Positions 8,863 to 37,817 of a stretch of DNA of 64,000 nt are shown in pieces; the stretch's first letter is position 1, and each line of letters opens with the position of its first letter. The stretch covers positions 386,897-450,896 of the forward strand of contig CAYVLY010000001.1 of the NCBI GenBank assembly GCA_964452565.1, given 5' to 3'. The position numbers and the translations under genes were made by a program. Source of the DNA: an uncultured Gammaproteobacteria bacterium. GTDB taxonomy: Bacteria > Patescibacteriota > Patescibacteriia > UBA9934. The notes under the pieces were generated by a model that ran no database searches, was not told the DNA's origin, and saw only the letters and a program-made list of their open reading frames with translations.

Positions 8863-11800
8863 TTATTGAGCACACATATTTAAGTAGATATCTGAAAGCT
8901 CCACAGTTCCCTCTCCATTATATGCTGTTCTCAAAGTCACGGTTTGCTCATTGGATCCATCGCAAGAGAATGTAGTTGGTAATTCTATTGATCTGCTTAA
9001 TCCAGCCTCGATAGTAGTAGACTCAGTCTCACCATCAAATGTTAGTGAGATTGTTACATTAAGGATCGCATCAACAATTGCTTCATACATAGCAACCAAC
9101 TCATCAGATGTTGTTGCACTGTATGCGTATGTGATTCCATTGTCAGGGACTTCACAATCGTGATTACCCTCAGTTGTCATTGCTCCACAAGAATCGCTGT
9201 TGTCAGTACATTCCATACTTGACCACCTCTGCATTTGAGCAATCTCACAATCACTATCACTCAACACTGCTGAGAACACCTCAACACCAGCATCTTTAAT
9301 GTCATCAAGGATATTACTTACTCCTCGCATATATTCGGCTGTATCCATGACATCATCACCATCTGTATCTTCTGTATCGATGTGATCGAAGTATAAGCTC
9401 TCATAATCTGTGTTATAGATATTTCCATCTGTAAAAATGATCATGTACTCATTATCTGCATACCCAGAGAATCCTAACGCCGCGTCCTCGATTGACTCAT
9501 AAATAGGTGTTCCTGTAGTGGAGTCTACTACCAGCCCGCTGGTGATACTTGATTGGGTATCTGACTCCGTTGTTGATACTCCAGCAGAACTTGCAGCTTC
9601 AAGCATTAAGAACTTACCTTCTCCAGACGATGAGTAACTTGCCCAAGCAACTAATGGCTTAAACATGTCAATTGCTTGATCCCAGAATGACAGTGTTGCC
9701 AACTTTGTGTCTTTGATGCTTGGATCATAGCCAGTTGCACCTTCTGTTTCTGCTGGATCAGTTCCACCCAAACCATCATCGTCTATTCCACCATCATCAT
9801 CGTCATCTCCACAGATATCTTCGCAATCAGCCTCATCAAGGACAAGCTCTCCACAGTCACACTCAATTGGCTCTGGTACCTCTTCCTCACACTCATCACC
9901 AACTCCATCACCATCTGTGTCCAATTGTGATGGATTTGAATCGTCTGGACAGTTATCTTCATCATCGGGTATTCCATCACCATCTGTGTCTACAGGTGCT
10001 GTGTAGGTTTGATGCAGGCCACCAATATAAGCCCATCCAATTCCCATATCTGCTGAAACTCCATCATAAGCTTCATGTAGAGCTGTGATAGCATCACCTA
10101 CTGCTGATTCCAATACTTCGATTCTGGTGCTATCTCCCAAGTCTGAACTCATCGACTTTGACAGGTCAATCACAAACATAATCTCAACGTCTGGATACTC
10201 GCGATCATCATCATTAATTGTCATTGTAAGACCATCAGAGACTGTACACTCAGGAATATAAAGTGTAGATGAGTTTCCAGTACTAATAACTAGTCCAGAT
10301 GAATCAAATGGAGAAATGTCAGTTGTATAGGTTCGCTTTGCGCCAAGCTCATTGGTCTCAAGAGCGATGCTCTGCGCTGTATAAGTAAACGGACACATGT
10401 TGGCACAGGAATCATTGCAAACTGGGAGTGCGCAATCTGAATACTCACAATCACTATCTGCCATGCAGTGATCGCCATTGTCTGATCCTCCGTTACAAAC
10501 TCCAACCATAGTACAAGTATATGTAGTGCCCGTACTGCCATCTAATATTATCTCACCATCTTCATCAACTTCTACTGTCCCACCCTCATCAGCTACATCG
10601 CAGTAATCATAAACTCCATTTGTTGAATCATAGTAGTAATAAGAAACATCATCGGCATCGCAGACCTCATCTCCATTAATCTCACCGTCTCCACAAAAAC
10701 TTCCTGATGAAGTTACGTTCACGCAATTGTCATTACAATATGCACAGGTCGAGCCATATGACGCAGTACAGATCGTTCCGTTTGCACTTCCTTCATCGCA
10801 TGATTCTTCACCGTCATAAACGTATCCATCTCCGCAGATGTTCTCAGTACATTCGATCGTACACGAGTCAGTAGAATCGTCATTTCCGTCGTCACACTCC
10901 TCTCCATCATCAACTACACCGTCTCCACATGAGCCAGGAGCTATGCAGTCAATATCTGCCCAGTCATATGCCCACAAACATGTAGAATCATCACACGTCC
11001 GTGTTCTTGTTGTTTGATATTCAATTGATGAACAAATTCCGTCTGCCACACCACTGCTATCACAGTCTCCATCTGTATCACATGGTTCGCCCATCTTATC
11101 TGCATCTCCGTCTACACAAACGGTTGTGTAAGGACACTCATTAGCAGTGTCTTTTGTTTCATCTGTTGTGTCTGTCTCTCCACACTGACCAGTTGATGAG
11201 CTGCCAGAACCGGCTGCCACAATCATAATACAATCGCTATCCTCATCACATTTATCTTCATCTGTTGAATTTCCGCTAGTGCACAACATTCCAGAATAAG
11301 TATCTGTGGTTCCATCACAATCCTCTTCATCATCTGCGTCACCGTCTCCACAATATGGACCAGCACCTGAGCAATCCCAAGCACAAGTATTAGACGCGCT
11401 GGCATCATATACACCATTCAAATATGTACATGATCCACCGCCATATGCTGCACCAGAGGCAGTTCCAGATGATCCACAGTCGCAGGCCTCACCTCCAGCC
11501 AAGGTTCCATCTCCACAATATGTTCGGCTTGTATTGAGACAATCTGCTCCGCAGAAACCATAGCTTCCATTTAATGACCCGTCATCACAATCCTCACCTG
11601 TTTCTGTCACTCCGTTTCCGCAGCTTGTCGCATCACATGTTGTCGTAGTGCTATAAGCAGCACATGTCGAATCGCACTCATCTACATAATATCCATCATT
11701 TGTTCCGTCTCCATCTGAGTCACATGCTGTTGTACTTGATGTGGTATCTCCGACCTCACAAAGCTCGCCACTTCCAACTATTCCATCTCCGCAGATATCA

Positions 11801-14800
11801 GATGCTCCCCAGATTGTTGATCCATCACAGAATGCCGGTCCATTTTGGAACCCATCACCTGTTCCGTATCCTCCAATAATTATTTGCTCATCGTCAGTTG
11901 TGTCACTGTCAATATCTGAGAACCAAGAACCAGTTTTAAATTCAAGTTCTGCACCAATAACATACCCAGAATCTCCATATGCACGATAATGATAGGTTCT
12001 TGAACCTCGCGGACAAAGATATTCACCAGCAACCTCATCCACACATGTTGTCTCATCATAATCTCTATATCTTCCGGAGCCACATCCTTGATAAGAATCT
12101 AAAGGATCTGAGTCAACGCTTACACCAAGATCTGTTGCTAGAACATCATCCCAGGATCCCCAAACACTTGATGTTAATGATCGAACAAAACTTCCTGATT
12201 CGATCTGTGGGGTTGAACTACTCATATACTCTGCAAGATCTGTAACATCTCCTAGACGATCCATATCGCGCATGAGCTTTGATTTTATGTCAGCACAATC
12301 GTATCCAGTTGCAGTACAGTCTAAGTCTGATTCGCAACTCGTTGTATAGTTTCCAGCTGTTGAGCTATAGCAAAGTGCCATGTCATCTACATTTGTAACA
12401 AGAGACAAGTTCTCAAGCATCATGTCAAAAATATCAACAGCTGTACTGCTTGCACCGTAGTTATAAGAGATGATTGCTATGTTCGGATATAACGATCCAG
12501 TGACATAGTTTGGAACAGCCACATAGGTTGAGCGGCCATCTACCACTGCCTGGAATCCATCAATCGTTGTTTGTGTTGGATTACCTGAGAATCCGTTTGC
12601 GTAATACCATGCCATTGGACTTAGGTACGAGCTATTCATCACAAAACGAACACCAATGGCATCACCTGTTGGGCCATTATCATTAACTACATTAAAGAAA
12701 TATTCTTTCAAAACTTCAGTACTTCCACGCTCTTGAGCCATCACAACGCGCAACTCTGGATAATCATCATCAGTGTCGCCATCTTCACCAGCATCTCGAC
12801 AATAGTATGTTGAGAAATTCATCCATCCACGTCCGACACCAGCAGACACACCTGAGCCTGCATGTAATCCGTCAGCATTATCTTCAAATGGGAAGTAATC
12901 AAGAGCTGGCCATGGATTATCACAAACAACTATCGTAATGTCTTCGGTTCCACTAACTACAGTTGATTCACATGTAGCAGATACATACTCGCAATCAGTA
13001 TCAAGGTCGCAACTCTCACCACTAATCGAACACACTCCTGAAGAACATGTCTCCTGACACTCAGAGTCAGTTGTACAACCGGTTATTGATGCATCAGAGC
13101 TACAGTAGAAAGACTCGCCAGATGTATCTTCTGTAACAATTGCTTTTGTTGCAATGTTTGCTTCACCACTTGATCCTGTGGATGTGTAATCAGCAGTGGC
13201 GGCGCTAACAGAGCCAACAGACTCACTGCTTCTTGTTAGGAATGAACCAATGCCATCGTCATCATCGTCGTCGTCCGAACTCCAGCTTGTCCATTCCCAT
13301 GTATATCCTGAAATTGGCTCAATCGCCTGTGCTGAGCCTGTGTCGTATGAATAAGCTGTTGCAGTAAATGTGTGCTCCTCATCAACCTCGGTGAATGCAT
13401 TCGGGCTATCTTCGTCTCCATCAATGATGTCCACTTCATCAAGTCCGCAAATGCTCTGATATGTCTCAAAGCTTTGTGAAGCATCTCCATCCATTGCAAC
13501 TCCATAACTTGTCAGAACTCCATCCCGATCATCATCACCCAGAGTATCTCCAGTAACATAGATTGTATAACTTGCTTCTGCAGCAAGTGCCTGATCGTGA
13601 TTGAACACCACTTTATAAACGCCATCACCAACTGCACTTTGCGTGTATCCAGTGATTGGCAATATACAGTCTCCACTTGTTTGTGCATGTACGATTGGCG
13701 CAAAGATCATTGTAAATACATTTAATGCTCGCTGCCACCAAGAATCTGACGATCCGCCCAAGGCAATAGTTGAATGAGTACTTGGGCAAGTTCCGTCATC
13801 AGTAGTTGTAATGTCTAATACTATAAATACATTGCCTTCAAAGGTTGATGTTTCCATCTTCATATTGAACAGCCCATAAATCTCAGCATTCAAACATGCG
13901 TTAGAGCCATTCGGGAACAATTCCGGATCAGGTCGCTCCATGCAACACAGTGTAGTTGCAGGACCATAGCCATCATCGCAATCATCATCATCTTCAGCAA
14001 CACATGAAAGATATAGCGAGGTATATGCCGTTAGATCGTCATAGGTAACCTGAACAGTTGCTGTTGCAAGGTTTGTACTCATATCTACCTGCTGTCCAGC
14101 GTCAGTACTGATCAAGGCCAACTGAACAGGATCTGTATATCCATCAGGTCCTGCGCCGTATGAGCTACCTTCGCAAGCGTCCAGCTCCCCATAGCCAGCA
14201 ATTCCATCTCCACAAACTGAGGCTTCAGTGTAATAAATCGATGAGCCTGAAAGCAGACAGTCATCAGAACACCACTCTTCCCCATCACAATCCTCACCGG
14301 CACTTGTACTTGAATGTTGATCTAATATTTCATCGCCACACTCGCCAGAACTTCCAAAGCTTGCGTAATCAGCATCAGCACCTTCACGAATACAGCTTGA
14401 TGAGCACCCGTCACCGTCGGTTGTATTTGAATCATCACAAGTCTCATATGGTTCATCGATTGTTCCATCACCACATTCTGCAGCAACTTGTGTAATCGCT
14501 GTTGTTCCTTCATTAAGACAGATTGAGGAGCATCCATCGCCAGATGAAGCATTTCCATCATCACAGTCCTCTCCTCCTTGATCATCTTCATGTGCGATAT
14601 CGCTATTTCCACATGTTGCTCCAGCTGCCTGAGACCCCTCGTTTAAACATGAAGAAGAACATCCATCACCGTTAGTTGAGTTGTTATCATCGCATTCTTC
14701 CCCGGTATCAAGGTCCCCATCACCACAACAGGAAGAACTATCTGCATCGCAAGTGCTTGCAGCATATGTACAATCCGTATCTAGAGAACACTCAGTTTCA

Positions 14801-17800
14801 GAGATAGAACATGTTCCAATTAACGCCTCTGTATCAGTTATTTCACATACTTCCTGGCAGTCTGTGTCAGCACTACAAGACTCGCCAGTTGATGAGCATG
14901 TGTATACACATGCGTCGGTTCCTTCATATTGGCAAGATGAAGAACATCCATCGCCATCAACTGTATTCCAGTCGTCACAGTCCTCACCCGTCTCAGTGGA
15001 GCCATTTCCGCAGATTCCATAATAAGTCTCTGATCCGCTTGCAGTACAAGCTGATGTACATCCGTCTGGGATATTTGTTTGACCTACATCAAACAAACTA
15101 CTTGCAACTGTAACCCATTCCGCTACATCCTCATCACTAACAATAGGGTCAGTCCATGACCAGTCATAGCCATAACCACTCAATTCCTGACCTGCAACAG
15201 AGCAGCTATCTGGATCTCCATATGCAGTGACCTCGTAATGCTGTGTATCGCCTATTGCCTCAAGTGTCTGATTTTCAGGGGCAAGTGCGATGCTGCTTAC
15301 CAAACAAAGTGCATCATCGTCCTTTGATCCAAAAGTCCAAGAGAAATCATCTCCATAGTTTGTTCTAGTAAGTGCTACGCCACTATTTGATATAGCAGAT
15401 CCTGACACTACAACTCTGTAGAACTCAGATTCCTTCAAGCTCGTACCGTAATCGCTGTCCGCAATAGTCAATGTCACCTCTGAACAACCAACTGATTCCA
15501 CGCTGCTGCAACTAGCTGTAGTTGTTATTTCTGAAACCACCGCACATAGCTCATTTGAGCAGGAATACAATGTTATATAATCAGTTATTGAATCATCCAT
15601 CACCACATTAAATGTAGCGCTAATTGCGCCATTCACGCATGCAGATGAACAATCTGGCTGATAGTCGCTAACATACGGATCTTCAAAATTAACAGTAACT
15701 TCTGCATCACCAGTGGTTCCGCTATCTGATTCTTCTGCTGTCAAAATAGTAATTCCTTCTGCAACACCAACTGCAGATATGCAATAATCTTCTGTCATTT
15801 CCTCACAATCTGTAAGGCCAATATATGAATATGTGTCTACATCCCAATCCCAACCATAACTTGCAGGATTCAAGACCTGACATTCTTGCAATGGCAATGC
15901 ATTGAACTCAGAATCTTCACCCTGCTCTTCAATCGTGGACGAGGTTGGGCTGACCATCACCTCTTCAATCTCACAATCTGCTTCACTTGGACCTGTAGTA
16001 AATGTCCAAGTCACATCCTCCTCAAGAGTTTGGCCAACGCCTGTATCTGAGTACGATGTAAGATCGTCCGTCACCCAAACAAGATATGAGGTGCTGGTTT
16101 TAAACTTCCCATCGTTATAAGAAGAATCTAAAGTCCATGTAAACGATGTTCGCTCAGTACTCGATGAGGCATATACCGACCCGCTTACATCATCGTCATC
16201 AAAATCAACATTGCACCTGCTATCAGAGCACTCAAAAATCTTAATGTTGTCGGTCGAAATAGTATCTTCATCCATGACAGTACTAAAAGACGCTCTAATC
16301 ACTGTATTGGTGCACGACTCTGTTGTATAAATTAGGTTTGGAACTGCACTAACCAAATCGTCAGAACACTCAACAAGTAAAGTTGGTACATCTGGAATGT
16401 CGCCTGTTGAGAAATACCAAGCATAACCTCCAGAAACATCAGCCGCGACCTCCTCTTCAACAGTTCCAACTTCAAAATTCAATTCATTACTTTCTTCTAG
16501 TGCCGACGAAGTAACAGATACTGGCCCAGTCTGGGTACCAGAAGGAACGGTCACCGTTACACTATCATCATCCCAATCCTCTACCGTGCCAAAAACTGAA
16601 CTATAAAATTCTACTGATCCTGCTGTTGACCCCAGCCTTTGACCATAGATAATAATAGTATCGTCAACCTCTGCGATATCTGGATCAATCGCACAAATTC
16701 CAGGAGTGGGTTCATCGTCAGTAACTGTAAAGTCAATATCATCTGAATCAACTCCAGCTTGTGTTGTTATATAAAGGTCGTAATCCCCTGCTTCAACATC
16801 GCTTTCATTAGTAAACTCTTCTGGAACTATGATTGTAATCTCATCATCACTCCAGTAATCATCCTCACAAGCATCTGGGAAATCAACACTACCCTGCGCG
16901 ACATATCCGCTAGTTTGATCTTCAAACCAAACACTTCCAATGGCAGCACCAAAGTTTGTACCTGAAATAGTGACATACTGACCCACGCCACCCTCTTCAG
17001 GATCTATAGAATAAATTGTTGGTATTTCCTCATCGCTATACTCAACTCCAAAGCTTATTTCGTTCGAAGTTACTCCATCAACTGTTACAGACACGTCAAC
17101 AAATTCTCCTGCCGTTAACGACGGCACGGTCACGACCGCAGACGCATCTGACCATGTTGAATAGCTACTTGCTTCAGTTGTATCAAAATAAATTGATGAA
17201 TCGCCCACTGAATCACCGAAGCCGAGCCCTGATAGCGTAACCGCGTCTCCTACCTCAGCTTCATCAGGAGCTATGTTACAAAGATTTGGACGCTCAGTTT
17301 CATTAACATCAAAATCATCAATCAACGTTCCTTCATCATTGTCAGTTGAGTCAGTATATCCAGATGGCGAAACTTCAACAGTAATAGGCCCATCATCAGC
17401 TCCTTCTGGTACTTCTGCAATGATCTGATCAGACCACCACCCCTCACCACAGGTTGGAATGTCAGCCTCTACCGTGCCGCCAGCGCCATCAGAAAAATAG
17501 ACCGAGCCTCTTGTTCCAAACCCAGAACCAGAAATAGTTACATAAGTGCCAACTGCTCCGTTTGAAGGTGAAATGCTCTCGATCTCAGGATATGAAACAC
17601 ATGTGCCATCTTCGCATGTCCCACTTGCACAATCATCGTCCTCCTCACATGAATCGCCATCACATGAGCCACAACTACCACCACAGTCAGTTCCCTCTTC
17701 ATCTTCGTCCTGCGTTCCATTGAAACAATGCGCTGGCAAAATCTTAATTCGAACTGAATCTGTGTCTTCGTTTCCTGCAATATCTGTCACAGTAACCTCA

Positions 17801-18837
17801 AGCGTGTAACGAGTGTCCTCTTCAGTGTCATCTGTATACCAAGTGCTTTCAATGGTTACATCTGATAAGTCAGATCCGCTTGCTGATACAGTGTCAAACC
17901 AATCATCACCAGCATAAAAATCCGCGCTCGATATCTCACTGTCATCTGTTGCTGATACTTGAACTAAACTTGAACTGTCTGTTGAGATATTCTCGCCGCT
18001 CTCAGGATAAGTAACACTCACATCAGGATCTTCGGTGTCAACTAACTCACCTGTGGTGAAAGTTGACGTACAGTCTGAAACCGCACAATCAAGCGAGGTT
18101 CCGGTCGAACTTTCAATATCGCCGTCTACAGTAACGGTGTACTGGGTATTTTCATCAAAACAATATCTATCTTCGTTTGGCTCAGGGCATGCTTCAGATG
18201 GCATGAACTCAATGCTGTTTCCTGAAATCTCCAAAGTTCCACTTACCTCATCGCCTGTTTCAGTATTTGTAATTGTGATATTCCCTTCAACTGTATCTTC
18301 ATCCAATGTTCTACTGAACGTGACCTCAGCTACGACATTACGAATCGACACTTCGCCTTCTGGTGAATAACCCGCAACTGCAAACGAAGTTACTGAACCT
18401 CCACCATAAGAACCACCCGCCCCACTATCACTACTTGTATAATCGCCATCACCGCCTGTGGCTTCTAATAAGGCATTTAGCACAAACGTCGTAATCGACC
18501 ACGATAATAATATTATCGCAAGCCCAATAAACCCGTTGAGAAGGATCTTCTTTGCTTTATCTACCTTGTCCGCCTCACCTCTTGCCGTCATCCACATGAA
18601 ACCACCGTATAGCACTATTACAACCGCAATAACGCCCAGAACAGTCAGGAATGTCCTTATAATCTTCGCAACAACGATTCTAAGATCTTCGTCCTGCAGA
18701 CCCGATACATCACCCACTTCCTCGAGTTCGTCGACTTGAGCATGGGTTACTTGCATTGGCACTAAGACACCTCCTGTTATTGTAAACAGGACTGCAAGCG
18801 AGCTTATGAATAGAGTTAAACGTTTGAAAAACAGCAT
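8863..18837 (-). CDS. giant (3324 aa) cell-surface adhesin-like protein with N-terminal signal peptide plus two-TM TrbC/VirB2-like pilin anchor module and a multi-domain ectodomain
   Basis: Single uninterrupted 9975-nt ORF. N-terminus: signal peptide, then VIAVVIVLYGGFMWMTARGEADKVDKAKKILLNGFIGLAIILLSW (two hydrophobic helices). Ectodomain: Big_5-like Ig domains; IPT/TIG-like ISPSNGAVGTYVTISGSGFG; many Cys-rich repeats of the form CGDGxxDxGEECDDGNxxxGDGCSSxC (DUF4215/Myxococcus-type cysteine-rich repeat); a TSP3 repeat DTDGDGIPDDEDNCPDDSNPSQLDTDGDGVGDECE; a vWA domain with MIDAS motif VIDLSKSMS. Confidence 0.85.
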   Translation of the reverse strand: MLFFKRLTLFISSLAVLFTITGGVLVPMQVTHAQVDELEEVGDVSGLQDEDLRIVVAKIIRTFLTVLGVIAVVIVLYGGFMWMTARGEADKVDKAKKILLNGFIGLAIILLSWSITTFVLNALLEATGGDGDYTSSDSGAGGSYGGGSVTSFAVAGYSPEGEVSIRNVVAEVTFSRTLDEDTVEGNITITNTETGDEVSGTLEISGNSIEFMPSEACPEPNEDRYCFDENTQYTVTVDGDIESSTGTSLDCAVSDCTSTFTTGELVDTEDPDVSVTYPESGENISTDSSSLVQVSATDDSEISSADFYAGDDWFDTVSASGSDLSDVTIESTWYTDDTEEDTRYTLEVTVTDIAGNEDTDSVRIKILPAHCFNGTQDEDEEGTDCGGSCGSCDGDSCEEDDDCASGTCEDGTCVSYPEIESISPSNGAVGTYVTISGSGFGTRGSVYFSDGAGGTVEADIPTCGEGWWSDQIIAEVPEGADDGPITVEVSPSGYTDSTDNDEGTLIDDFDVNETERPNLCNIAPDEAEVGDAVTLSGLGFGDSVGDSSIYFDTTEASSYSTWSDASAVVTVPSLTAGEFVDVSVTVDGVTSNEISFGVEYSDEEIPTIYSIDPEEGGVGQYVTISGTNFGAAIGSVWFEDQTSGYVAQGSVDFPDACEDDYWSDDEITIIVPEEFTNESDVEAGDYDLYITTQAGVDSDDIDFTVTDDEPTPGICAIDPDIAEVDDTIIIYGQRLGSTAGSVEFYSSVFGTVEDWDDDSVTVTVPSGTQTGPVSVTSSALEESNELNFEVGTVEEEVAADVSGGYAWYFSTGDIPDVPTLLVECSDDLVSAVPNLIYTTESCTNTVIRASFSTVMDEDTISTDNIKIFECSDSRCNVDFDDDDVSGSVYASSSTERTSFTWTLDSSYNDGKFKTSTSYLVWVTDDLTSYSDTGVGQTLEEDVTWTFTTGPSEADCEIEEVMVSPTSSTIEEQGEDSEFNALPLQECQVLNPASYGWDWDVDTYSYIGLTDCEEMTEDYCISAVGVAEGITILTAEESDSGTTGDAEVTVNFEDPYVSDYQPDCSSACVNGAISATFNVVMDDSITDYITLYSCSNELCAVVSEITTTASCSSVESVGCSEVTLTIADSDYGTSLKESEFYRVVVSGSAISNSGVALTRTNYGDDFSWTFGSKDDDALCLVSSIALAPENQTLEAIGDTQHYEVTAYGDPDSCSVAGQELSGYGYDWSWTDPIVSDEDVAEWVTVASSLFDVGQTNIPDGCTSACTASGSETYYGICGNGSTETGEDCDDWNTVDGDGCSSSCQYEGTDACVYTCSSTGESCSADTDCQEVCEITDTEALIGTCSISETECSLDTDCTYAASTCDADSSSCCGDGDLDTGEECDDNNSTNGDGCSSSCLNEGSQAAGATCGNSDIAHEDDQGGEDCDDGNASSGDGCSSICLNEGTTAITQVAAECGDGTIDEPYETCDDSNTTDGDGCSSSCIREGADADYASFGSSGECGDEILDQHSSTSAGEDCDGEEWCSDDCLLSGSSIYYTEASVCGDGIAGYGELDACEGSSYGAGPDGYTDPVQLALISTDAGQQVDMSTNLATATVQVTYDDLTAYTSLYLSCVAEDDDDCDDGYGPATTLCCMERPDPELFPNGSNACLNAEIYGLFNMKMETSTFEGNVFIVLDITTTDDGTCPSTHSTIALGGSSDSWWQRALNVFTMIFAPIVHAQTSGDCILPITGYTQSAVGDGVYKVVFNHDQALAAEASYTIYVTGDTLGDDDRDGVLTSYGVAMDGDASQSFETYQSICGLDEVDIIDGDEDSPNAFTEVDEEHTFTATAYSYDTGSAQAIEPISGYTWEWTSWSSDDDDDDDGIGSFLTRSSESVGSVSAATADYTSTGSSGEANIATKAIVTEDTSGESFYCSSDASITGCTTDSECQETCSSGVCSISGESCDLDTDCEYVSATCESTVVSGTEDITIVVCDNPWPALDYFPFEDNADGLHAGSGVSAGVGRGWMNFSTYYCRDAGEDGDTDDDYPELRVVMAQERGSTEVLKEYFFNVVNDNGPTGDAIGVRFVMNSSYLSPMAWYYANGFSGNPTQTTIDGFQAVVDGRSTYVAVPNYVTGSLYPNIAIISYNYGASSTAVDIFDMMLENLSLVTNVDDMALCYSSTAGNYTTSCESDLDCTATGYDCADIKSKLMRDMDRLGDVTDLAEYMSSSTPQIESGSFVRSLTSSVWGSWDDVLATDLGVSVDSDPLDSYQGCGSGRYRDYDETTCVDEVAGEYLCPRGSRTYHYRAYGDSGYVIGAELEFKTGSWFSDIDSDTTDDEQIIIGGYGTGDGFQNGPAFCDGSTIWGASDICGDGIVGSGELCEVGDTTSSTTACDSDGDGTNDGYYVDECDSTCAAYSTTTTCDATSCGNGVTETGEDCDDGSLNGSYGFCGADCLNTSRTYCGDGTLAGGEACDCGSSGTASGAAYGGGSCTYLNGVYDASASNTCAWDCSGAGPYCGDGDADDEEDCDGTTDTYSGMLCTSGNSTDEDKCDEDSDCIMIVAAGSGSSSTGQCGETDTTDETKDTANECPYTTVCVDGDADKMGEPCDTDGDCDSSGVADGICSSIEYQTTRTRTCDDSTCLWAYDWADIDCIAPGSCGDGVVDDGEECDDGNDDSTDSCTIECTENICGDGYVYDGEESCDEGSANGTICTASYGSTCAYCNDNCVNVTSSGSFCGDGEINGDEVCDADDVSYYYYDSTNGVYDYCDVADEGGTVEVDEDGEIILDGSTGTTYTCTMVGVCNGGSDNGDHCMADSDCEYSDCALPVCNDSCANMCPFTYTAQSIALETNELGAKRTYTTDISPFDSSGLVISTGNSSTLYIPECTVSDGLTMTINDDDREYPDVEIMFVIDLSKSMSSDLGDSTRIEVLESAVGDAITALHEAYDGVSADMGIGWAYIGGLHQTYTAPVDTDGDGIPDDEDNCPDDSNPSQLDTDGDGVGDECEEEVPEPIECDCGELVLDEADCEDICGDDDDDGGIDDDGLGGTDPAETEGATGYDPSIKDTKLATLSFWDQAIDMFKPLVAWASYSSSGEGKFLMLEAASSAGVSTTESDTQSSITSGLVVDSTTGTPIYESIEDAALGFSGYADNEYMIIFTDGNIYNTDYESLYFDHIDTEDTDGDDVMDTAEYMRGVSNILDDIKDAGVEVFSAVLSDSDCEIAQMQRWSSMECTDNSDSCGAMTTEGNHDCEVPDNGITYAYSATTSDELVAMYEAIVDAILNVTISLTFDGETESTTIEAGLSRSIELPTTFSCDGSNEQTVTLRTAYNGEGTVELSDIYLNMCAQ

Positions 18838-18915
18838 GTAATGATTGTTTATAACAATTATTACCCTGAGCGACCCCTGCGATCTACACAGGGAGTCGAA
18901 GGGTGAATTCTTTAA

Positions 18916-20733
18916 CTAAAATGAACACTCTGATGATGATGGCACACCAGCACAACAATATGGATAACTAGACGATGTTCCGCACGATCCTCCACTTACA
19001 TCAGGCCCCTCACCTGGAACAAAGCAATTCTGATATTGATTCTTGATCTGATAATCTCCTGTACCGTCCATTCGTGGAACCTCAGGTATGTAGAAATAGG
19101 TTGTTCCACCATCAACGCTTTCCAAGAAAACTCCGTGATTGATCTCAACTTGAGATGCAACAACGTCTTTTCCTGTTTCTCCAGCATCAGCCCCATCTTC
19201 ATCTAAGCTATTCACGTAAATCCAAAACGCCATCTCGTGAACTGGTACAGGTTCCAGCGAAATATTTGTAGTAGTTAGAGTCGAACTCATCATCACGGAA
19301 TCAAATGTAATATAAACCTCCTGATCTAATGAAATGTCTGATTCAGAAATATCTGGGGAAATACTGTCAATCTCTGGAGCAGTTAGATTTATATCGTCAG
19401 TTGTAGTAAAGCTCCAGGCATAGTCATCCCCTGCCGTTCCATCATCATCTCCATCCAAAGCGTTCCCTGCTGTATCTGTAACTCCATCATAAGGATAGAT
19501 ATCAACCTGCGGTGGCTCCTCGCCTGGAGTTGCCGCAACTGCCGTGACCGAGATTGTCTGACCTCCAGGAAGGCAGTAGATTGTCTCTCCACATGAGTTT
19601 GTTCCGCATGGATCATCTGATGTGAAGGTTACAGTTCTGTACTGATTGCTTATTTCATAAGATCCAGCTGTTGGAGATCCGTCCGCTCCAACTGTTTGAA
19701 TGTTATCGAATCCCGAATCCGACTCCCTTGTTCCAGAAGCACTTGTTGGATCAACTGCTTCACTAAATGTAATCTCAACAACAATATTTCGATCATATGA
19801 GCCAGATGCAGCTGGAGTAACACTATTCACAGTTGGAGGTGTTAGATCGATTTCTGTTCCAACTTCAAACGACCATTCATATCCTCCAGTATCAAGAATT
19901 GTCTCGCCATCTACATTTTCAATATCATCATTTAGATAAACCGTGTAGGAAGTATCATCTGTAGATGAGCCTAGGAGCTCTGTTGGATCAAATACGAATG
20001 TTTTTAAATCATCTGTGAAACTAACATCTACCTCAGTACTTTCAAACGCACCGCTCTCACCATCTGCAGATGCATAGATTAAAATGTTATCTGTATTAAG
20101 CTCAGTGGACGTTGTGTCGTCAGATACATCGTCCGGAGTTCCAGCTGTATCATAGCCTGAGATAATTGCCTCAAGATCTATCTCATCCTTGAATGTTACG
20201 AAGATTTTCGTGTTGCGAGCGATCTCTGATGCATTACGTTCTGGATAGTGATCACTTATTCCCCCTGATCCTAACGAGCCAGAGAGCCGCTCAACGGTCG
20301 GAGTACTTGAATAACTTGTTGAATACGATCCAGTATCACTTATCGCGCCTGTGAGTGCATTGATGATGAACGCTGTTATTGCATATGCGCACAGTGTAAT
20401 GACAAGTCCGATAGTCGCATTTATCAAAATGTTTTTCGCCTTTGTAATTTTGTCTGGATCTCCTTGCGATGTCATCCATGTGAATCCTGCATACAAAACT
20501 AGAACCAAGAAAATCACTCCTAGAATTCCTAAGAACACTTTTATGATATTTCCGATCAGCTCAGGTAGTTCAGCGTCTGCAAGTTCAGATGCCTCAGCTG
20601 CAGTCTCTAAGCCTCCTGCAACATCCTGCGCCATTGCTGGAGCCGCGCTAAAAATAAAAAGCGCCAGCACCAAAAAACCGACACCTACCATGAACATTAT
20701 CGCTTGGGGTAGAAGCGTTTTGTGTTTTGTCAT
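18916..20733 (-). CDS. 605-aa surface protein with the same signal peptide plus TrbC/VirB2-like two-TM anchor module, followed by Big_5-type Ig-like domains and a Cys-rich C-terminus
   Basis: N-terminal IIKVFLGILGVIFLVLVLYAGFTWMTSQGDPDKITKAKNILINATIGLVITLCAY is paralogous to the giant protein N-terminus. Ig-like TPPTVNSVTPAASGSYDRNIVVEITFSEAVDPTS; C-terminal CGTSSSYPYCCAGVPSSSECSF. Confidence 0.8.
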   Translation of the reverse strand: MTKHKTLLPQAIMFMVGVGFLVLALFIFSAAPAMAQDVAGGLETAAEASELADAELPELIGNIIKVFLGILGVIFLVLVLYAGFTWMTSQGDPDKITKAKNILINATIGLVITLCAYAITAFIINALTGAISDTGSYSTSYSSTPTVERLSGSLGSGGISDHYPERNASEIARNTKIFVTFKDEIDLEAIISGYDTAGTPDDVSDDTTSTELNTDNILIYASADGESGAFESTEVDVSFTDDLKTFVFDPTELLGSSTDDTSYTVYLNDDIENVDGETILDTGGYEWSFEVGTEIDLTPPTVNSVTPAASGSYDRNIVVEITFSEAVDPTSASGTRESDSGFDNIQTVGADGSPTAGSYEISNQYRTVTFTSDDPCGTNSCGETIYCLPGGQTISVTAVAATPGEEPPQVDIYPYDGVTDTAGNALDGDDDGTAGDDYAWSFTTTDDINLTAPEIDSISPDISESDISLDQEVYITFDSVMMSSTLTTTNISLEPVPVHEMAFWIYVNSLDEDGADAGETGKDVVASQVEINHGVFLESVDGGTTYFYIPEVPRMDGTGDYQIKNQYQNCFVPGEGPDVSGGSCGTSSSYPYCCAGVPSSSECSF

Positions 20734-20802
20734 ATTTTCTTGTCGTGTTAGTTACAACGACCACTAACATTATACCGCAAACTCAAGCAATCTTTACTAC
20801 AA

Positions 20803-20842
20803 ATTGTGGACACAAAAAGCCCCCGATTTCTTAGGGGCTTTT
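20803..20842 (-). terminator. 40-nt repeated double-hairpin terminator module (copy 1)
   Basis: ATTGTGGACACAAAAAGCCCCCGATTTCTTAGGGGCTTTT: hairpin TTGTG-GA-CACAA plus hairpin AAGCCCC-N9-GGGGCTT with T-run. Identical copy at 25844..25883. Confidence 0.6.
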
Positions 20843-20852
20843 AACTATATTT

Positions 20853-21416
20853 TCATAATACTACCAACTCCTCCCTCTTCTTCATTTCTTTTCCTTCAGT
20901 GTCAATCTGACTAGCTTCCTCTACATCATCACCTCTTGTGAATCTAGGGAAGAAGGTGGCTTCTATGTCTATGATGTATTGGTTCCAGTCTTCTCCATAT
21001 AGAGTGGTCGCTATTTCTTCTGTCTGTATCCATCTTATGGTTGTTCCGTTTGTATCTATGGCATATACCTTAGGATCAGACTGGATCTTTATTAGTACCA
21101 CTCCTGGGTTTGGTAACATTGGTTGTCCAAGTTCAATGGTGGTTAAAGTAGCGTCTGTTACTATTTTAACGTTGTCAAAGTTATCTTGGTATGTAAAGAA
21201 GGTTTGCATATCCATGAATGGACGTCTAACTGTCTCACCTGTAGTTTCGTCAGAATCTAGATAGTAAACTGTTGAGAAGTAAGCTGAACGTATATAGTCC
21301 CCTTCAGAGGTTACAGATATGTCTTCTAGTTCTCCTGTGACTGGAGATACTCCTGTTTGGCCTGTGGATGGCTCTGTTACTTCTGTAGCTGCATCATCAT
21401 CTGTAGTATCATTCAC
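20853..21416 (-). CDS. acidic hypothetical protein; ORF-track start is a GTG; reading frame is open and protein-like upstream as far as the TGA at 21648..21650
   Basis: No ATG, GTG or TTG in the 77 in-frame codons upstream of the listed GTG. The upstream segment encodes a BNR/Asp-box-like motif YSTDGGSTYT. It is in the same frame as the 1402-aa ORF. Confidence 0.5.
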   Translation of the reverse strand: MNDTTDDDAATEVTEPSTGQTGVSPVTGELEDISVTSEGDYIRSAYFSTVYYLDSDETTGETVRRPFMDMQTFFTYQDNFDNVKIVTDATLTTIELGQPMLPNPGVVLIKIQSDPKVYAIDTNGTTIRWIQTEEIATTLYGEDWNQYIIDIEATFFPRFTRGDDVEEASQIDTEGKEMKKREELVVL

Positions 21417-21647
21417 GACTCCATCGTCTACACCGTTAAGTGCACATGTTTCTGTTTCAAAGGTCGCTGTTATATCTGCAAGATCTGTACCCTCAATCTT
21501 AAACTGAAGTGTACTTCCTACTATATCTGTTGGAATAGTCCATGTGTAGTGTTCTGTATTTGTTATTGGGCCATCAATAAATGTGTATGTTGAACCGCCA
21601 TCTGTTGAGTAATGGATATTTACTAAATTAACACTCGAGGAGGTTAC

Positions 21648-24600
21648 TCATGACAGTGCGATATCTTCTCCTGGATTCAGACCTTCTGAACAGGTTCCTG
21701 TTGATGTAGAGGAAGATGAGATTGAGTCTGCACCACCTTCAAGAGAGCCAATCTCGGGAGAAGATGAGGTTGTTGGAGTACTTCCTGAACTTGCTGTTGT
21801 AAAACTTATGTCGTCTAGTGTTGTTTCATTACCAAAGTCATCTATGGCCCAAATCTTTGTGTAATATGTGGTTTGCTTGCTAAGGCCTGTGATGGTTGTG
21901 GTTGCGGTTCCTACGGTTGTTAGATCTGTGTCATCTGAATCATCCCATTCAGTAGCACTTGTTCTACCTTGAACATCTGACTGGCTAGTATCAATCCAGA
22001 TTTCATAATGATTAAAGTTTGAGTCTGTGGCTGCAGTCCAGGTAAACGTTGCGGTTGTGGTAGTCGCACTAGAACGTGCGAATGAAGCTAAAGACGCTGG
22101 ATCTACATTGTCTACAGTTATACTTGTTTTAGATGCAGTAGATCCGGCTGCAGTTCCATCATATGGAGTTATTCTAACCTGGGCAGTAGAAAGATCGGCT
22201 GCTGCCTCATCTGTAGCAGATTCCCATACAACAGAGACTGTATTAGCTCCAGATGAACTTGTTATATATCCACTGGCATTACCTACTTGGTAAGTATCAT
22301 CGTTTTCTACTGCAGGATCTCCATAAGTAGCAGATGCCTCTGCTCCTGTCTCAGATACTGTAGCTTTAGTCCATCCTCCGCCAATGTCGTATTCAACAAG
22401 GGCCTCTAGAGTATCGTCATCATCTGCATCATCCATGATGAATGTAATAGTCACATCTCCTGTTCCGTCTGTACCTTGAGTTGCTGTAACTGTTGAGACT
22501 GTTGGGGCAACATTGAAACCCCAGTTGGTATTATTCCCTCCATTTGTTGAACGTGACGGGCTTACAGCATGTGTAATTGTATTACCACCACTCGCATCTG
22601 AATCTGTGACATTAACATAATCTACAGAACTTGTACCTGAAACATTTAAAAGCCAGGTTGTAGCAGGACTAGAACTAGTAATTGTAATCAGGGCTGCATC
22701 ACCACCTGTTAATGTTAGGGTCCCAGATACTGTTGTTGTGGTGCTTGCTGTAAATACAATTGCCTTACTTGCTGTTGTAGAGGTTAAATTATTGAAAGAT
22801 GTAGTTCCAGAAATCGTTGTTGTCTTTGACACGTCGTCCAATGTCACGGTTCCTGATCTGGGCGTAAATGTCCCGGAGTTAGCCCAATCACCTCCCACTG
22901 TAATTGCATAGTTATCACCATCTGAAGTGTCTAGCGTTCCAGCCGTAATTGTGAGTGTATTATTTACATCTATAGCCTCATCTAGTGTATAAGTGCTACC
23001 AGATGAGTTAATTGTTAAATTATTGTATGGAGATAATGCTGAAAGTAATGATGTAGACTCTGTGGTTGCTGCATTATATGTAATTGTTCCACCTGAGTTA
23101 GTCCATGTGTTTGCAGTTTTAACAATATCAGAAGTCGTATCATTAGATTCAATCTGAAGTTCACCACTTGAAATTGTTACAGTATCTCCTCCTGCATCTC
23201 CAAAGGTATTTATATTTGTTCCCGTCTTCATCGTTCCACCACTAATAACTGTATTACCTGCAATGGTCATAGTGTAGTCATTAACATCAAAGGTTCCTGC
23301 AGATACTGTTAGATTTCCCACTATTGATTCATTTGCACCCAACTGAGCTATTGCACCTCCAGTTGTTGCAATTTCCAGGCTTTGATATGCCCAGTCCTGC
23401 ATAGCAACCGTTCCTGTTGATGAAACATATTTTACTGTAGAGCCTGAGTTCAAAGTTGGAACAGTATCATCTAAAGTCAAGGTTTCTGTTCCTCTCCATG
23501 CAAATGTTCCGCCATCTTCAACTACAAAATCACCAGACCAACCACTAACTGTCAAATCATAACCATTTATATTTAATTCCCCTTCTACAACAGTGAGGTC
23601 TTGCTCACTGTCATTCACAGTTAAATCAGATGCTAAATTAACAGTCGGTGTTGAAGTGGTGGTTCCTATTTTTATATGTCCGTCATATAAAGCTTCTGCT
23701 CCAGTTAAATCAAAAGTTTGAGCACTAGAGCCAGCAAGAGTCAATACAGAGTCATTCTTATCATAACTGTACCAATTTGATTCTATTGTTACATCTCCTT
23801 GAGCTTCAATTGTGCCCAATATCGTCCTTCCATCACTCATTAATAAATCACCTTCAACATACAGGGTATCCCCAGAGCCTAAATAAACATAATTAGAACC
23901 TCCACCACATACAACGCCCGTACCACTACAATCAAAGGTAACATCATTGAAAACACCAGAAGTAGCAATTGACGCCTTATCAAAATTCCAAGTGTCAGAA
24001 CCATTACCATCCCACATGAAAGTACCACTGTTATGATTAGAAACACCTCCAGCAGTATGGGTCCAACTGCCTGCAATAAATGTTGTACCAGTTGTTGCAT
24101 TAAAAGTTCCATCTGTAATAATCACATCATTTACATCTAATGTTCCTGTATTTCCATTTAATGTACCTCCAGATATATTTAAATCATCTGCCACCTCCAA
24201 TTCATATGCGCCAACATTCAAACTTCCATCAGTGAGTGTCAAATCTTGTCCTGAACTATTCATTATCAAGTCAGATGCTAAATTAACAGTTGGTGCTGCG
24301 GAACCAGTCCCTATTGTTACATGTGCGTTAAATAAAGCTTCCCCTCCAGTTAAATCAAAAATTTGTGTACCAGAGCTAGAAAAAACTAAAGGAGTGTCAC
24401 TGGTATTATTGCTATACCAATTTGACTCTATTGTTACATTTCCCTGGGCCTCAATTGTACCTGTTATTACTCTTCCATCACTCATTAATAAATCACCTTC
24501 AACATACAGGGTATCCCCAGAGCCTAAATAAACATAATTAGAACCTCCACCACATACAACGCCCGTACCACTACAATCAAAGGTAACATCATTGAAAACA

Positions 24601-25793
24601 CCAGAAGTAGCAATTGACGCCTTATCAAAATTCCAAGTGTCAGAACCATTACCATCCCACATGAAAGTACCACTGTTATGATTAGAAACACCTCCAGCAG
24701 TATGGGTCCAACTGCCTGCAATAAATGTTGTACCAGTTGTTGCATTAAAAGTTCCATCTGTAATAATCACATCATTTACATCTAATGTTCCTGTATTTCC
24801 ATTTAATGTACCTCCAGATATATTTAAATCATCTGCCACCTCCAATTCATATGCGCCAACATTCAAACTTCCATTAGTAATAGTTAAATCTAGCCCACCA
24901 TAATTCAAAATACAATCCGAAACTAAATTAACAGTTGGTGCATTAGTTACAGTTCCAATAGTTGTATGTGAATCCCATTCATCTGTATATCCTGTTAAAT
25001 CAAAAGTTTGTGTCCCTGTTCCAGTAAATGTCAGAGCGGCATCAGTAAGATTAAAGGCATCCCAAGGTCCTACAGTGACATTACCCTGCACCTCTATACC
25101 ACCACCGTTAAACCACCTTCCATCATAAAAAGTCGCATTACCGTTTATATATAGGGTGTCTCCTGAAAGATTAACATAGGAGCCGGAGTCACTGGTGCTA
25201 TCATAAGTAAAATTATTAAACACTCCAGAGGTAGGAATCCCGGCTTTATCAAAATTAAAGGTTTGTCTATAACCAGTATGTTTGACTGTTCCTGAACCTG
25301 CATTCCACACTCCTCCAGCTGTATGTGTCCAGTTTCCAGTAAAAGTGAGCGTCCCTGACGTACCATTAAATGTACCACCTGAAATTGTAACACCTCCGCT
25401 TATTGTAATATCTTGACTTGCTCCAGTGAATGTCCCATCTGCTTGATCATAATGTGATGAACCAATTGTTAAACTTCTAGCCTGTGTAATGGTCCCATCA
25501 TAACCACTATTTATATCAATTCCAGCAACAGACCCTGCAAATGAAGCGTCAATTGTTGAATCATTGTCAGAAGTATTATCAAAAGTAGCAACATCACTTG
25601 CTCCTGGTGGTGAATCGGTAGACCAGTTCAAGCCAGTTGACCAGTTTGTATCAACTCCTCCGCCACCATCCCAAGTGACTACTGCTGCATGAGCTTGATT
25701 GGCACTCCAAAAGGCTGCAAGTAGCACAAATAATGCAATAATAGAAATATTGCAAATCAGCAAGCCAAGCGATCTTGTCTTAATATATTTCAT
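21648..25793 (-). CDS. large secreted/anchored protein with parallel beta-helix-like ~215-aa tandem repeats and C-terminal FN3-like domains
   Basis: Likely start MKYIKTRSLGLLICNISIIALFVLLAAF (signal/anchor) at 25793; the ORF-track start at 25856 lies inside the terminator repeat. Repeats NISGGTLNGNTGTLDVNDVIITDGTFNATTGTTF occur; two copies are nucleotide-identical over ~400 nt. FN3-like TTATFTWTAATDSNFNHYEIWI. Stop TGA at 21648..21650. Confidence 0.8.
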   Translation of the reverse strand: MKYIKTRSLGLLICNISIIALFVLLAAFWSANQAHAAVVTWDGGGGVDTNWSTGLNWSTDSPPGASDVATFDNTSDNDSTIDASFAGSVAGIDINSGYDGTITQARSLTIGSSHYDQADGTFTGASQDITISGGVTISGGTFNGTSGTLTFTGNWTHTAGGVWNAGSGTVKHTGYRQTFNFDKAGIPTSGVFNNFTYDSTSDSGSYVNLSGDTLYINGNATFYDGRWFNGGGIEVQGNVTVGPWDAFNLTDAALTFTGTGTQTFDLTGYTDEWDSHTTIGTVTNAPTVNLVSDCILNYGGLDLTITNGSLNVGAYELEVADDLNISGGTLNGNTGTLDVNDVIITDGTFNATTGTTFIAGSWTHTAGGVSNHNSGTFMWDGNGSDTWNFDKASIATSGVFNDVTFDCSGTGVVCGGGSNYVYLGSGDTLYVEGDLLMSDGRVITGTIEAQGNVTIESNWYSNNTSDTPLVFSSSGTQIFDLTGGEALFNAHVTIGTGSAAPTVNLASDLIMNSSGQDLTLTDGSLNVGAYELEVADDLNISGGTLNGNTGTLDVNDVIITDGTFNATTGTTFIAGSWTHTAGGVSNHNSGTFMWDGNGSDTWNFDKASIATSGVFNDVTFDCSGTGVVCGGGSNYVYLGSGDTLYVEGDLLMSDGRTILGTIEAQGDVTIESNWYSYDKNDSVLTLAGSSAQTFDLTGAEALYDGHIKIGTTTSTPTVNLASDLTVNDSEQDLTVVEGELNINGYDLTVSGWSGDFVVEDGGTFAWRGTETLTLDDTVPTLNSGSTVKYVSSTGTVAMQDWAYQSLEIATTGGAIAQLGANESIVGNLTVSAGTFDVNDYTMTIAGNTVISGGTMKTGTNINTFGDAGGDTVTISSGELQIESNDTTSDIVKTANTWTNSGGTITYNAATTESTSLLSALSPYNNLTINSSGSTYTLDEAIDVNNTLTITAGTLDTSDGDNYAITVGGDWANSGTFTPRSGTVTLDDVSKTTTISGTTSFNNLTSTTASKAIVFTASTTTTVSGTLTLTGGDAALITITSSSPATTWLLNVSGTSSVDYVNVTDSDASGGNTITHAVSPSRSTNGGNNTNWGFNVAPTVSTVTATQGTDGTGDVTITFIMDDADDDDTLEALVEYDIGGGWTKATVSETGAEASATYGDPAVENDDTYQVGNASGYITSSSGANTVSVVWESATDEAAADLSTAQVRITPYDGTAAGSTASKTSITVDNVDPASLASFARSSATTTTATFTWTAATDSNFNHYEIWIDTSQSDVQGRTSATEWDDSDDTDLTTVGTATTTITGLSKQTTYYTKIWAIDDFGNETTLDDISFTTASSGSTPTTSSSPEIGSLEGGADSISSSSTSTGTCSEGLNPGEDIALS
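23836..24876 (-). repeat. near-perfect intragenic tandem duplication (period 645 nt; about 396 nt identical: 23836..24231 = 24481..24876)
   Basis: The identical 77-aa reverse-frame ORFs 23879..24112 and 24524..24757 in the ORF track show the duplication. The identical nucleotide strings were read directly. Confidence 0.85.
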
Positions 25794-25843
25794 GATCTTA
25801 TTGTTTCTATATTGTATCAAGCTACTATTTATAAAAGAAACAT

Positions 25844-25883
25844 ATTGTGGACACAAAAAGCCCCCGATTTCTTAGGGGCTTTT
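25844..25883 (-). terminator. 40-nt repeated double-hairpin terminator module (copy 2), downstream of yqeY
   Basis: Identical to 20803..20842. Confidence 0.6.
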
Positions 25884-35988: not shown

Positions 35989-36034
35989 TCTTTGTTCATT
36001 CAACCAGGCCCAGGGGCGCAAACCAGAGAACAAC

Positions 36035-36556: not shown

Positions 36557-36576
36557 ACCGTACCTCACCCCCACCC

Positions 36577-36614: not shown

Positions 36615-36682
36615 GAGCCAATACCGGCTCTTTTTTGACCAAACTACCAACGTTACACGTTGGTAGTTTTTGCATAATTATA

Positions 36683-36711: not shown

Positions 36712-36778
36712 TTTTTGTTTCTAGCGCAACTCCGCGCAGAACATATCGTGCATCCCGCACGTGAAGAGGGAGACAAGA

Positions 36779-37747
36779 ATGACTCACAGGCAAATCAAGG
36801 TGTGGCGCCAGCCCACCTCTGTGAGCGTCCAGCTCGAAGCCACCCGCAGCGCCGAGCACGAATTGAGACAGCTCATCATAGCCATACAGCAAGCGCTGGG
36901 GGTCCAGGACTGGCACAACTTCGGACGCATGCTCCAGACCTGCTGCAACGTCTTCATGCCAGAACGCCACACCCCGATGGGCTTCGGCGTACGCAGACGT
37001 TCACCAGCCCAGATCCTCAAGCGCAAGATGGAGTGGGTGGACATCGAAGAGTTCAAGGCCTTCGGCCTCAAGATCGAAGACGAAACCTTCACAGCCACCC
37101 CCCGCGAACCCGTGACCATCACGATCGGACGCACCTTCACTGGGGGTCACGAGTTCAACAGCGATGGACACAGCATCGTCTTCACGGTCGCAAGCGACTC
37201 CGAGGTCGAGATCATCGCTGAGGTCCAGGACAGAGTCGGGAGCGTCGATAGAGGCCGCCACATGGGCAGCTACCACTTGCAGCTTGGCGAAACCACCTAC
37301 ACATCTGTGCTCTACGTCCAGGCCTGGACTCAGAGACACTGGGCCTTCAGCAAGGGCAGCAAGGAACGCCTGGGAGACCGCCTGCAGGAACCGCCCTACG
37401 ACTGCTTCCGCCGAGATGCTCCGATCTATCAGGTCGAACCGCTCGAAGACGAGGAGCTCGTGGTCTACGAGAGCTCTGGGGCCCACAATGTAGGTCTGGA
37501 AGTGCCCTTCTCGCGCACGGCACCGAGACACCCGGATCGTCAGGTCTTCGCCTCGGTCGGACCGTTCTCGTTGGCACTGCGCAAGGGCGAACGCCGCGGA
37601 CGCAGCCCAGCTCGCGATCGCATCGTGGTCTTCCGCGATGACAAACTGCCCATCGTCCCACCCGAAGTTGACGATGAGGAATGCGACGATAGCGGCTGGG
37701 ACTGCGACGAATTCGACTTCGCTGACCGGTACGACGCAGAGTACTAG
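36779..37747 (+). CDS. hypothetical protein in ~60% GC island (cassette 3), 322 aa
   Basis: RBS GAGGGAGA 6 nt before the ATG at 36779; GC-rich; antisense ORFs in this stretch are treated as GC artefacts. Confidence 0.55.
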   Translation: MTHRQIKVWRQPTSVSVQLEATRSAEHELRQLIIAIQQALGVQDWHNFGRMLQTCCNVFMPERHTPMGFGVRRRSPAQILKRKMEWVDIEEFKAFGLKIEDETFTATPREPVTITIGRTFTGGHEFNSDGHSIVFTVASDSEVEIIAEVQDRVGSVDRGRHMGSYHLQLGETTYTSVLYVQAWTQRHWAFSKGSKERLGDRLQEPPYDCFRRDAPIYQVEPLEDEELVVYESSGAHNVGLEVPFSRTAPRHPDRQVFASVGPFSLALRKGERRGRSPARDRIVVFRDDKLPIVPPEVDDEECDDSGWDCDEFDFADRYDAEY

Positions 37748-37756
37748 CCCCACCAC

Positions 37757-37810: not shown

Positions 37811-37817
37811 TCAAACC

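Follow-up and report, generated by a model that had tools for sequence, protein, structure and literature searches.

A 64-kb window of DNA from an Uhrbacteria-like (Patescibacteria) bacterium carries on its minus strand a gene for a large surface protein whose reading frame is interrupted by a single TGA at 21650..21648. The cause of this interruption is probably a real and recent nonsense mutation in which the tryptophan codon TGG became TGA (W1382*, numbered from the ATG at 25793). In this bacterium, which resembles Candidatus Uhrbacteria and uses the standard code, the ancestral gene would have encoded a single large, secreted surface protein with a layout of signal peptide, beta-helix-type repeats, FN3 domain, Ser/Thr linker, immunoglobulin (Ig)-like domain, acidic linker and conserved C-terminal domain. 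An earlier, sequence-only reading of the window had proposed a single surface protein broken by one stop, and this proposal is supported: the interruption falls within a domain, where homologues almost always have Trp, and the relatives of the gene are fused. The event is of an ordinary kind and is not a recoding signal.

In the proposed sequence of events, a single G-to-A transition would have converted the conserved Trp codon in the first-strand region of the Ig-like domain to TGA, and RF2 would terminate translation there. The main product would be a protein of 1381 amino acids (aa) ending in ...GEDIALS, or about 1345 aa after cleavage of the signal peptide, that would lack most of the Ig-like domain and the entire C-terminal domain; without the latter, the protein would be released or end up in the wrong place. 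If tRNA-Trp(CCA) read the UGA as a near-cognate codon, in an unprogrammed way, the ancestral residue would be inserted and a little wild-type protein made, and trace amounts of the wild-type form arising through such background reading are plausible.

The stop position in homologues and structural models

The minus-strand frame 25856..20853 comprises 1668 codons, and on translation the TGA at 21650..21648 is its sole internal stop; the 264 codons 3' of it are open and terminate in a TGA at 20855..20853. The list of open reading frames (ORFs) divides this frame into two minus-strand entries, one of 1402 aa that starts on TTG (21648..25856) and one of 187 aa that starts on GTG (20853..21416). 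The latter GTG, at 21416..21414, is codon 78 after the stop and the earliest ATG, GTG or TTG 3' of it. Retranslation bore out what the sequence-only reading had described, namely the end of the upstream ORF at the TGA, the continuation in the same frame, the coordinates and counts, and the 77 codons that hold no start. In this tightly packed region an open in-frame continuation of at least 264 codons follows the stop of 4 of the 58 long ORFs in the window; the other three are followed by separate neighbouring genes whose own start lies 12-78 nucleotides (nt) past the stop. An open frame alone is therefore not unusual here, and it is protein homology straight across the stop that exceeds chance.

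This homology was examined with a protein search in which the junction region and the downstream part served as query, with W placed at the stop. The search returned 49 proteins, and those with a named source are all labelled Patescibacteria or Candidatus Uhrbacteria save one weak Gemmatimonadales match. Trp at the stop column is almost invariant in alignment A1, where it forms part of the motif I-x-W-x-S a few residues before 'VNLYYS-DGG-TY', and the Trp at this column is invariant in alignment A4. A genome scan restricted to one genome per species gave 80 loci, and the codon at the site was read by tblastn. The codon aligned with the stop is TGG in 60 of 62 homologous copies, the remaining two being edge misalignments; the window copy alone has TGA at the aligned site, and an internal stop is present in none of the 107 other homologous high-scoring segment pairs (HSPs). 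The tblastn HSP covers query residues 1-398, crossing the stop position in frame. Of the causes listed in the sequence-only reading, recent nonsense mutation is the best supported.

The closest genome is the Uhrbacteria metagenome-assembled genome (MAG) SI037_bin110, which carries at least five paralogous genes (L003-L006 and L034). Four of these, L003-L006, are 74-75% identical to the window copy over the Ser-rich linker, the Ig-like domain, the acidic linker and the C-terminal domain and differ in their N-terminal parts; the fifth, L034, is 48% identical over part of the module only. At the junction the SI037_bin110 copies read PGENIALAW(TGG)ASNSSVNLVNLYYSTD, against PGEDIALS*(TGA)VTSSSVNLVNIHYSTD in the window. 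The pattern of shared tails and dissimilar N-termini suggests that the tail module may be exchanged or homogenised between surface-protein genes of SI037_bin110. A paralogue that apparently belongs to the same genome (P0019) has an intact 'EVTWEAD...' domain and tail.

Orthologue comparison for a fused gene, which had been proposed as a check, yielded uninterrupted single ORFs of 1078 (L061), 1446 (L019), 1690 (L076), 2022 (L007), 2327 (L009) and 2923 aa (L055). All six share the C-terminal module, and five of them (not L019) possess a signal peptide and the 'V/I-(T/S)-W-D-G-G-G...N-W-S' beta-helix opening. Residues ~1049-1350 of the window protein are matched at 50-54% identity by L019, L024, L007 and L009. 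Exact look-ups of the 1381-aa and 605-aa proteins of the window and of P0019 gave no match. A scan of JGI metagenome contigs for the exact junction pattern had 0 matches, and a protein-based scan of these contigs recovered only FN3-domain relatives (38-68% identity, query ~1-190), with no close orthologue or TGG allele among them. The protein search itself missed the 100%-identical 187-aa Logan/NCBI entry, and its lack of matches above 90% is thus not proof that no TGG allele exists. P0007, a protein of 263 aa that starts just past the Trp position, was considered as a second split case and rejected as a contig-edge fragment.

The sequence downstream of the stop is well preserved. Conservation within the family reaches 85% or more at 47 columns, and 45 of these are unchanged in the window; the two changed columns are conservative (L to I and V to I), and the closest relatives score the same overall. 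The downstream 264 codons contain no further stops or frameshifts and do not show the decay by which a pseudogene is recognised. Such undecayed codons would mean either that the mutation is evolutionarily very recent or that the downstream part is still in use and under selection.

Structural models place the stop within a domain. In the AlphaFold model of homologue P0001, a beta strand (103-107) directly precedes W108, the equivalent of the stop, and the remainder of the sandwich follows with a predicted local distance difference test (pLDDT) score of 81-92. The model of the 264 downstream residues of the window (mean pLDDT 90.6) begins mid-sandwich and continues with the acidic linker and then a packed alpha/beta domain. 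Because the models show the beta sandwich split after its first strand, the stop, as modelled, cuts a folded domain and is not a gene boundary. The BNR/Asp-box-like motif that had been read just past the stop is better described as a hairpin of a PF10342-type Ig-like domain; Pfam gave no BNR match.

These results bear directly on the possibility that the locus holds two genuine genes, one for the 1402-aa protein and one for an independent protein of 187-264 aa. Public annotation (NCBI, Logan) does list the 187-aa ORF as a protein, and a few short, seemingly stand-alone entries of the C-terminal domain exist in databases. A boundary at the stop would split the sandwich after its first strand, however, and 77 codons without a start follow it; the GTG at 21416 is not followed by a signal peptide and has its GGAG a mere 2 nt upstream, and the short look-alike P0007 is the contig-edge fragment mentioned above. 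Furthermore, the C-terminal domain was found in 3626 representative proteins at E<=1e-3, and in about 95% of the top 150 it sits at the very C-terminus of a long protein. We therefore regard two genuine genes as very improbable. The annotated 187-aa ORF is probably an artefact of ORF calling, because its GTG lies within the acidic linker with GGAG only 2 nt upstream and its product would be a cytoplasmic fragment of an extracellular module.

Alternatives to a recent nonsense mutation

The stop is present in assemblies of two sequencing runs. Logan has assembled both SRR8146440 and SRR8146441, and the 187-aa ORF is on record in each; the contigs concerned, 1460 and 1454 bp long, match the window exactly at 20813..22272 and 20813..22266, TGA included, with unbranched sequence extending ~600 bp 5' and ~835 bp 3' of the TGA. 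Another SRR8146440 contig matches the yqeY region exactly. Because the Logan assemblies of the two runs are identical across the TGA, an assembly error in the window at this site is excluded, and both runs have TGA as their consensus allele. No mention of SRR8146440 was found in the literature. The two Logan contigs (L084 and L085) stop within 6 bp of each other, at 22266 and 22272, at a site that is not repeated in the window; this breakpoint suggests strain variation, or a repeat common to another genome in the sample.

The sequencing or assembly error that the sequence-only reading had allowed for is thereby largely excluded. What would remain of it is an error of sequencing, amplification or consensus in an organism that truly has TGG and an intact 1646-aa gene. 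The wholly intact downstream ORF and the single-base difference would both fit such an error, as would the adjacent accessions of the Logan runs, which could share a library or an amplified template. Against it, separate runs and a different assembler give the same 1.45-kb sequence with TGA and unbranched flanks, and the Pfam-scanned genes of the window give full-length matches with no disruption seen, which speaks for the quality of an assembly that is not error-prone. We consider this explanation unlikely.

That TGA is a genuine stop in this genome, which uses the standard code, is shown by its distribution. TGA terminates 15 of 59 long stop-to-stop ORFs in the window and ends complete ftsA, dprA, Mur ligase and Sm_multidrug_ex genes. 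The ATG of the Mur-ligase gene overlaps the TGA of dprA, and the product of the Sm_multidrug_ex gene, a small export protein, is matched by its Pfam profile over positions 1-121 of 121 and ends on TGA. In-frame TGA is absent from about 30 other genes of the window, including ftsZ, topA, hisS, a class II tRNA synthetase of the Asp/Asn type, der, relA/spoT, a PPDK-like gene, parA/parB, ruvX, map, recO, scpA/B and the neighbouring gene for a 3324-aa protein. Rfam identified three tRNAs only in the window (two tRNA-Met and one tRNA-Leu) and nothing near the stop. No tRNA with the anticodon UCA was found in the window, and no tRNA-Trp gene in the window or in the scanned loci L001-L082.

Bacteria known to have reassigned UGA read it as Gly (Gracilibacteria and Absconditabacteria) or as Trp (Mycoplasmatales, Entomoplasmatales and some endosymbionts of insects) (PMC8629427); neither is indicated here. 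The existence of Patescibacteria that read UGA as Gly, and the Trp that aligns with the stop as code 4 would require, could be taken to favour recoding of UGA, genome-wide or local, whether as Trp (code 4), as Gly (code 25) or as selenocysteine. Conserved genes nevertheless end on TGA where expected, no further conserved gene in the 64 kb has an in-frame TGA, and the natural end of the gene is itself a TGA. The site holds Trp, not Cys or selenocysteine, in homologues, and no hairpin resembling a selenocysteine insertion sequence was found: shuffled sequences fold as stably as the 106 nt that surround and follow the stop (z = -0.38). On these two grounds selenocysteine is excluded. Recoding of any kind is extremely unlikely, and the sequence-only reading was right to reject code 25: TGA ends conserved genes and is absent in frame from housekeeping genes of the window.

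A further alternative is that the stop is functional and selected, tRNA-Trp reading the UGA usefully so that a truncated, released protein and a full-length isoform with the C-terminal domain are both made. Near-cognate tRNA-Trp(CCA) can read UGA, which would restore the ancestral Trp (PMC13092985), and the downstream codons are fully preserved. Peptides encoded 3' of the stop include SAYFSTVYYLDSDETTGETVR, PFMDMQTFFTYQDNFDNVK and IVTDATLTTIELGQPMLPNPGVVLIK, and the tryptic peptide over the junction is ~130 aa long. Several observations speak against selected leakiness. A stop is found in 0 of 107 other copies, including the five in the closest genome and the apparent same-genome paralogue; RNA structure 3' of the stop was not found in the fold of the 106 nt; and the stop splits a folded domain, where programmed extensions usually begin at a domain boundary. 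The stop stands in the context UCA-UGA-G, and UGA-G is not known as a notably leaky context. Useful leaky termination is accordingly improbable, and it is a shade more doubtful still that the TGA is maintained so that one gene gives both a released beta-helix protein and an envelope-attached form with the C-terminal domain. If true, a maintained TGA would represent natural isoform control by a leaky UGA in a surface protein of Patescibacteria. The programmed readthrough offered as one option in the sequence-only reading finds no support.

The same reading had suggested a phase-variable surface protein, that is, one reversibly switched off. The gene is indeed a large surface-protein gene with internal repeats. 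The site, TCA TGA GTA ACC, contains no homopolymer or short tandem repeat, however, and the change is a substitution rather than a frameshift. Invertible elements and inverted repeats at the flanks were likewise not observed, and the 44-nt repeats that flank the gene are direct, terminator-like and outside the coding region. Phase variation is thus highly unlikely, the suggestion being unsupported where no repeat tract occurs at the site.

Two considerations weigh against a recent nonsense mutation, which we nevertheless favour. The intact 264 codons fit continued selection via readthrough equally well. In addition, the evidence for the stop is assembly-level, and the accessions of the two runs are adjacent and may share a study, a sample or amplified DNA; a shared artefact or a minor TGG (wild-type) allele is possible but unlikely.

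Parts of the gene and its surroundings

The features of the locus, all on the minus strand, are as follows.

25840..25883, minus strand: the 44-nt terminator repeat again, in a second copy with 98% identity, between yqeY and the gene; holds TTG 25856
21651..25793, minus strand: 5' part of the gene, 1381 codons by translation, from ATG 25793 to the codon before the stop
25686..25793, minus strand: predicted Sec signal peptide MKYIKTRSLGLLICNISIIALFVLLAAFWSANQAHA, cleavage after AHA, read from the translation
21825..22070, minus strand: FN3 domain ahead of the Ser/Thr-rich linker (Pfam PF00041, residues 1242-1323)
21432..21680, minus strand: Ig-like beta sandwich straddling the stop, PF10342-type in homologues; approximate boundaries
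21648..21650, minus strand: in-frame TGA replacing TGG (Trp); plus-strand 21648 is T, and the ancestral base would be C
21357..21431, minus strand: acidic disordered linker GVDDGVVNDTTDDDAATEVTEPSTGQ, pLDDT 53-55 at model residues 71-90; approximate boundaries
21414..21416, minus strand: GTG taken by gene callers as the start of the 187-aa 'gene'; probably spurious
20856..21356, minus strand: conserved C-terminal alpha/beta domain of ~165 aa, pLDDT 93-98, now 3' of the stop
20853..20855, minus strand: TGA that naturally ends the full-length ancestral gene; the alignment shows homologues ending at this position too
20799..20842, minus strand: terminator-like hairpin and T-run 3' of the gene; one copy of the 44-nt direct repeat

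The real start of the gene is almost certainly ATG 25793 (MKYIKTRS...) and not TTG 25856, because the TTG falls within the terminator-like hairpin after the upstream yqeY and a signal-peptide-like N-terminus begins at the ATG. Counted from this ATG the gene has 1381 + 1 + 264 = 1646 codons, against 1667 from the earlier count; of the single protein of ~1667 aa that had been proposed, the fusion therefore stands and the length does not. Judged by eye, a basic n-region, a hydrophobic core and an AxA pattern point to a signal peptide at the N-terminus. The 5' part continues with long Gly/Thr-rich repeats of beta-helix type, which open with 'VTWDGGGG..NWS', followed by a middle region and the FN3 domain. 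The FN3 match is sub-threshold (E 5.8e-4, 20.5 bits versus a Pfam gathering score of 25), and FN3 and the C-terminal module are contiguous in the homologues P0008, L007, L009, L019 and L024. The first strand of the Ig-like domain ('EDIALS') lies upstream of the stop and the other strands downstream, and acidic linkers of varying length are present in all aligned homologues. Within the beta-helix region a stretch of 403 nt is exactly repeated at 23827-24229 and 24472-24874 on the minus strand (offset 645 nt), so that ~133 aa are duplicated; this repeat may reflect a very recent event of tandem duplication or gene conversion, and a collapse or expansion in assembly is also conceivable.

The 44-nt direct repeat (one mismatch, hairpin AAGCCCCTAAGAAATCGGGGGCTTTTT) brackets the entire gene, its copies lying 5041 bp apart, and the Logan contigs terminate inside it. 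The bracketing repeat could be a reused terminator or the footprint of an insertion or duplication of the gene.

The C-terminal domain follows the pattern SPVTGE...GDYIRS.YFSTVYY...VRRPFMD.QT...VTDATL...LG.PMLP..GVVL.KIQSD..VY...RWI..E..A..YG..W..Y.ID. Neither Pfam nor NCBIfam has a model for it or for the beta-helix part. In secreted Patescibacteria proteins its N-terminal partners are proteases, M23 peptidases, glycosidases, cupredoxins and adhesin-like giants. Since thousands of different extracellular proteins of Patescibacteria terminate in the domain, its most plausible role is that of a candidate module for anchoring to, or sorting at, the cell envelope. A PDB profile search with alignment A3 gave mostly matches to the subtilisin domains of unrelated N-termini and was uninformative on the tail. 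Many loci that carry this module, otherwise one of Patescibacteria/Uhrbacteria, come from Third Party Annotation (TPA) MAGs titled 'uncultured Gammaproteobacteria bacterium' (L010-L014, L018, L019, L021, L023 and others), and these titles look like a placeholder or wrong taxonomy.

Two genes downstream of the interrupted gene (8863-20733, minus strand) encode proteins of 605 and 3324 aa. In both, large extracellular regions (Big_5; cysteine-rich acidic repeats) come after an N-terminal domain resembling the pilin of type IV secretion systems (T4SS; PF18895/NF045849-like, partly below curated cut-offs). With the gene for a 303-aa TSP3-repeat protein, the two make up a series of surface-protein genes. 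Elsewhere in the window, a GC-rich island at ~36600-38000 (56.5% GC in 36001-38000 versus ~43% elsewhere) contains long ORFs overlapping on both strands, including one of 328 aa at 36761..37747 on the plus strand with no Pfam match. The island, in which neither an Rfam match nor a tandem repeat was found, may be foreign DNA.

Significance and comparison with known systems

Annotation should treat the locus as a single, interrupted gene (W1382*) and not as a 1402-aa protein and a 187-aa hypothetical protein, and W1382* should not count as evidence for an alternative code or for recoding in Uhrbacteria. It would represent a surface-protein gene observed shortly after it was inactivated, in keeping with the rapid turnover of such proteins expected in episymbiotic CPR (candidate phyla radiation) bacteria. 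The unannotated family of C-terminal domains is a more interesting by-product than the nonsense mutation itself. Its sole structural neighbour, a weak one, is the repeat domains of EccB1 from the mycobacterial type VII secretion system, which are PlyCB-like and have been proposed to bind the cell wall (PMC4769845). The two share no sequence similarity, the scores are weak and wall binding by EccB1 is itself unproven, which makes the neighbour a lead only.

The Ig-like domain resembles those of PF10342 (Kre9_KNH/'Ser-Thr-rich GPI-anchored membrane family'). The homologues P0003, P0006, P0013 and P0019 have precomputed PF10342 matches, and the beta-sandwich fold and an I-x-W ... YS-x-DGG ... Y-x-W-x-P pattern are common to both. 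The window copy differs in falling below detection, its sequence with W restored giving no match to PF10342 at E<=1, and it is a divergent relative at best.

Like genomes in which UGA is decoded as Trp (code 4, by near-cognate tRNA-Trp or tRNA-Trp with a 4-bp anticodon stem; PMC8629427, PMC13092985), the window has a UGA where homologues carry Trp. It differs in having a single such UGA in its 64 kb and several conserved genes that end on UGA; GC content here is ~43%, and Uhrbacteria do not belong to the clades known for reassignment. Programmed stop-codon readthrough likewise presents an in-frame UGA followed by a long protein-like extension, whereas the stop described here is unconserved, has no stimulatory structure and lies within a domain rather than at a junction. 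The closest parallel is provided by ordinary nonsense alleles and young pseudogenes of bacterial surface-protein genes, in which one substitution turns a conserved sense codon within a domain into a stop, the downstream frame remains intact and gene callers split the locus in two. From these W1382* differs in nothing essential; TGG-to-TGA is the only nonsense change for which background suppression by tRNA-Trp restores the original residue.

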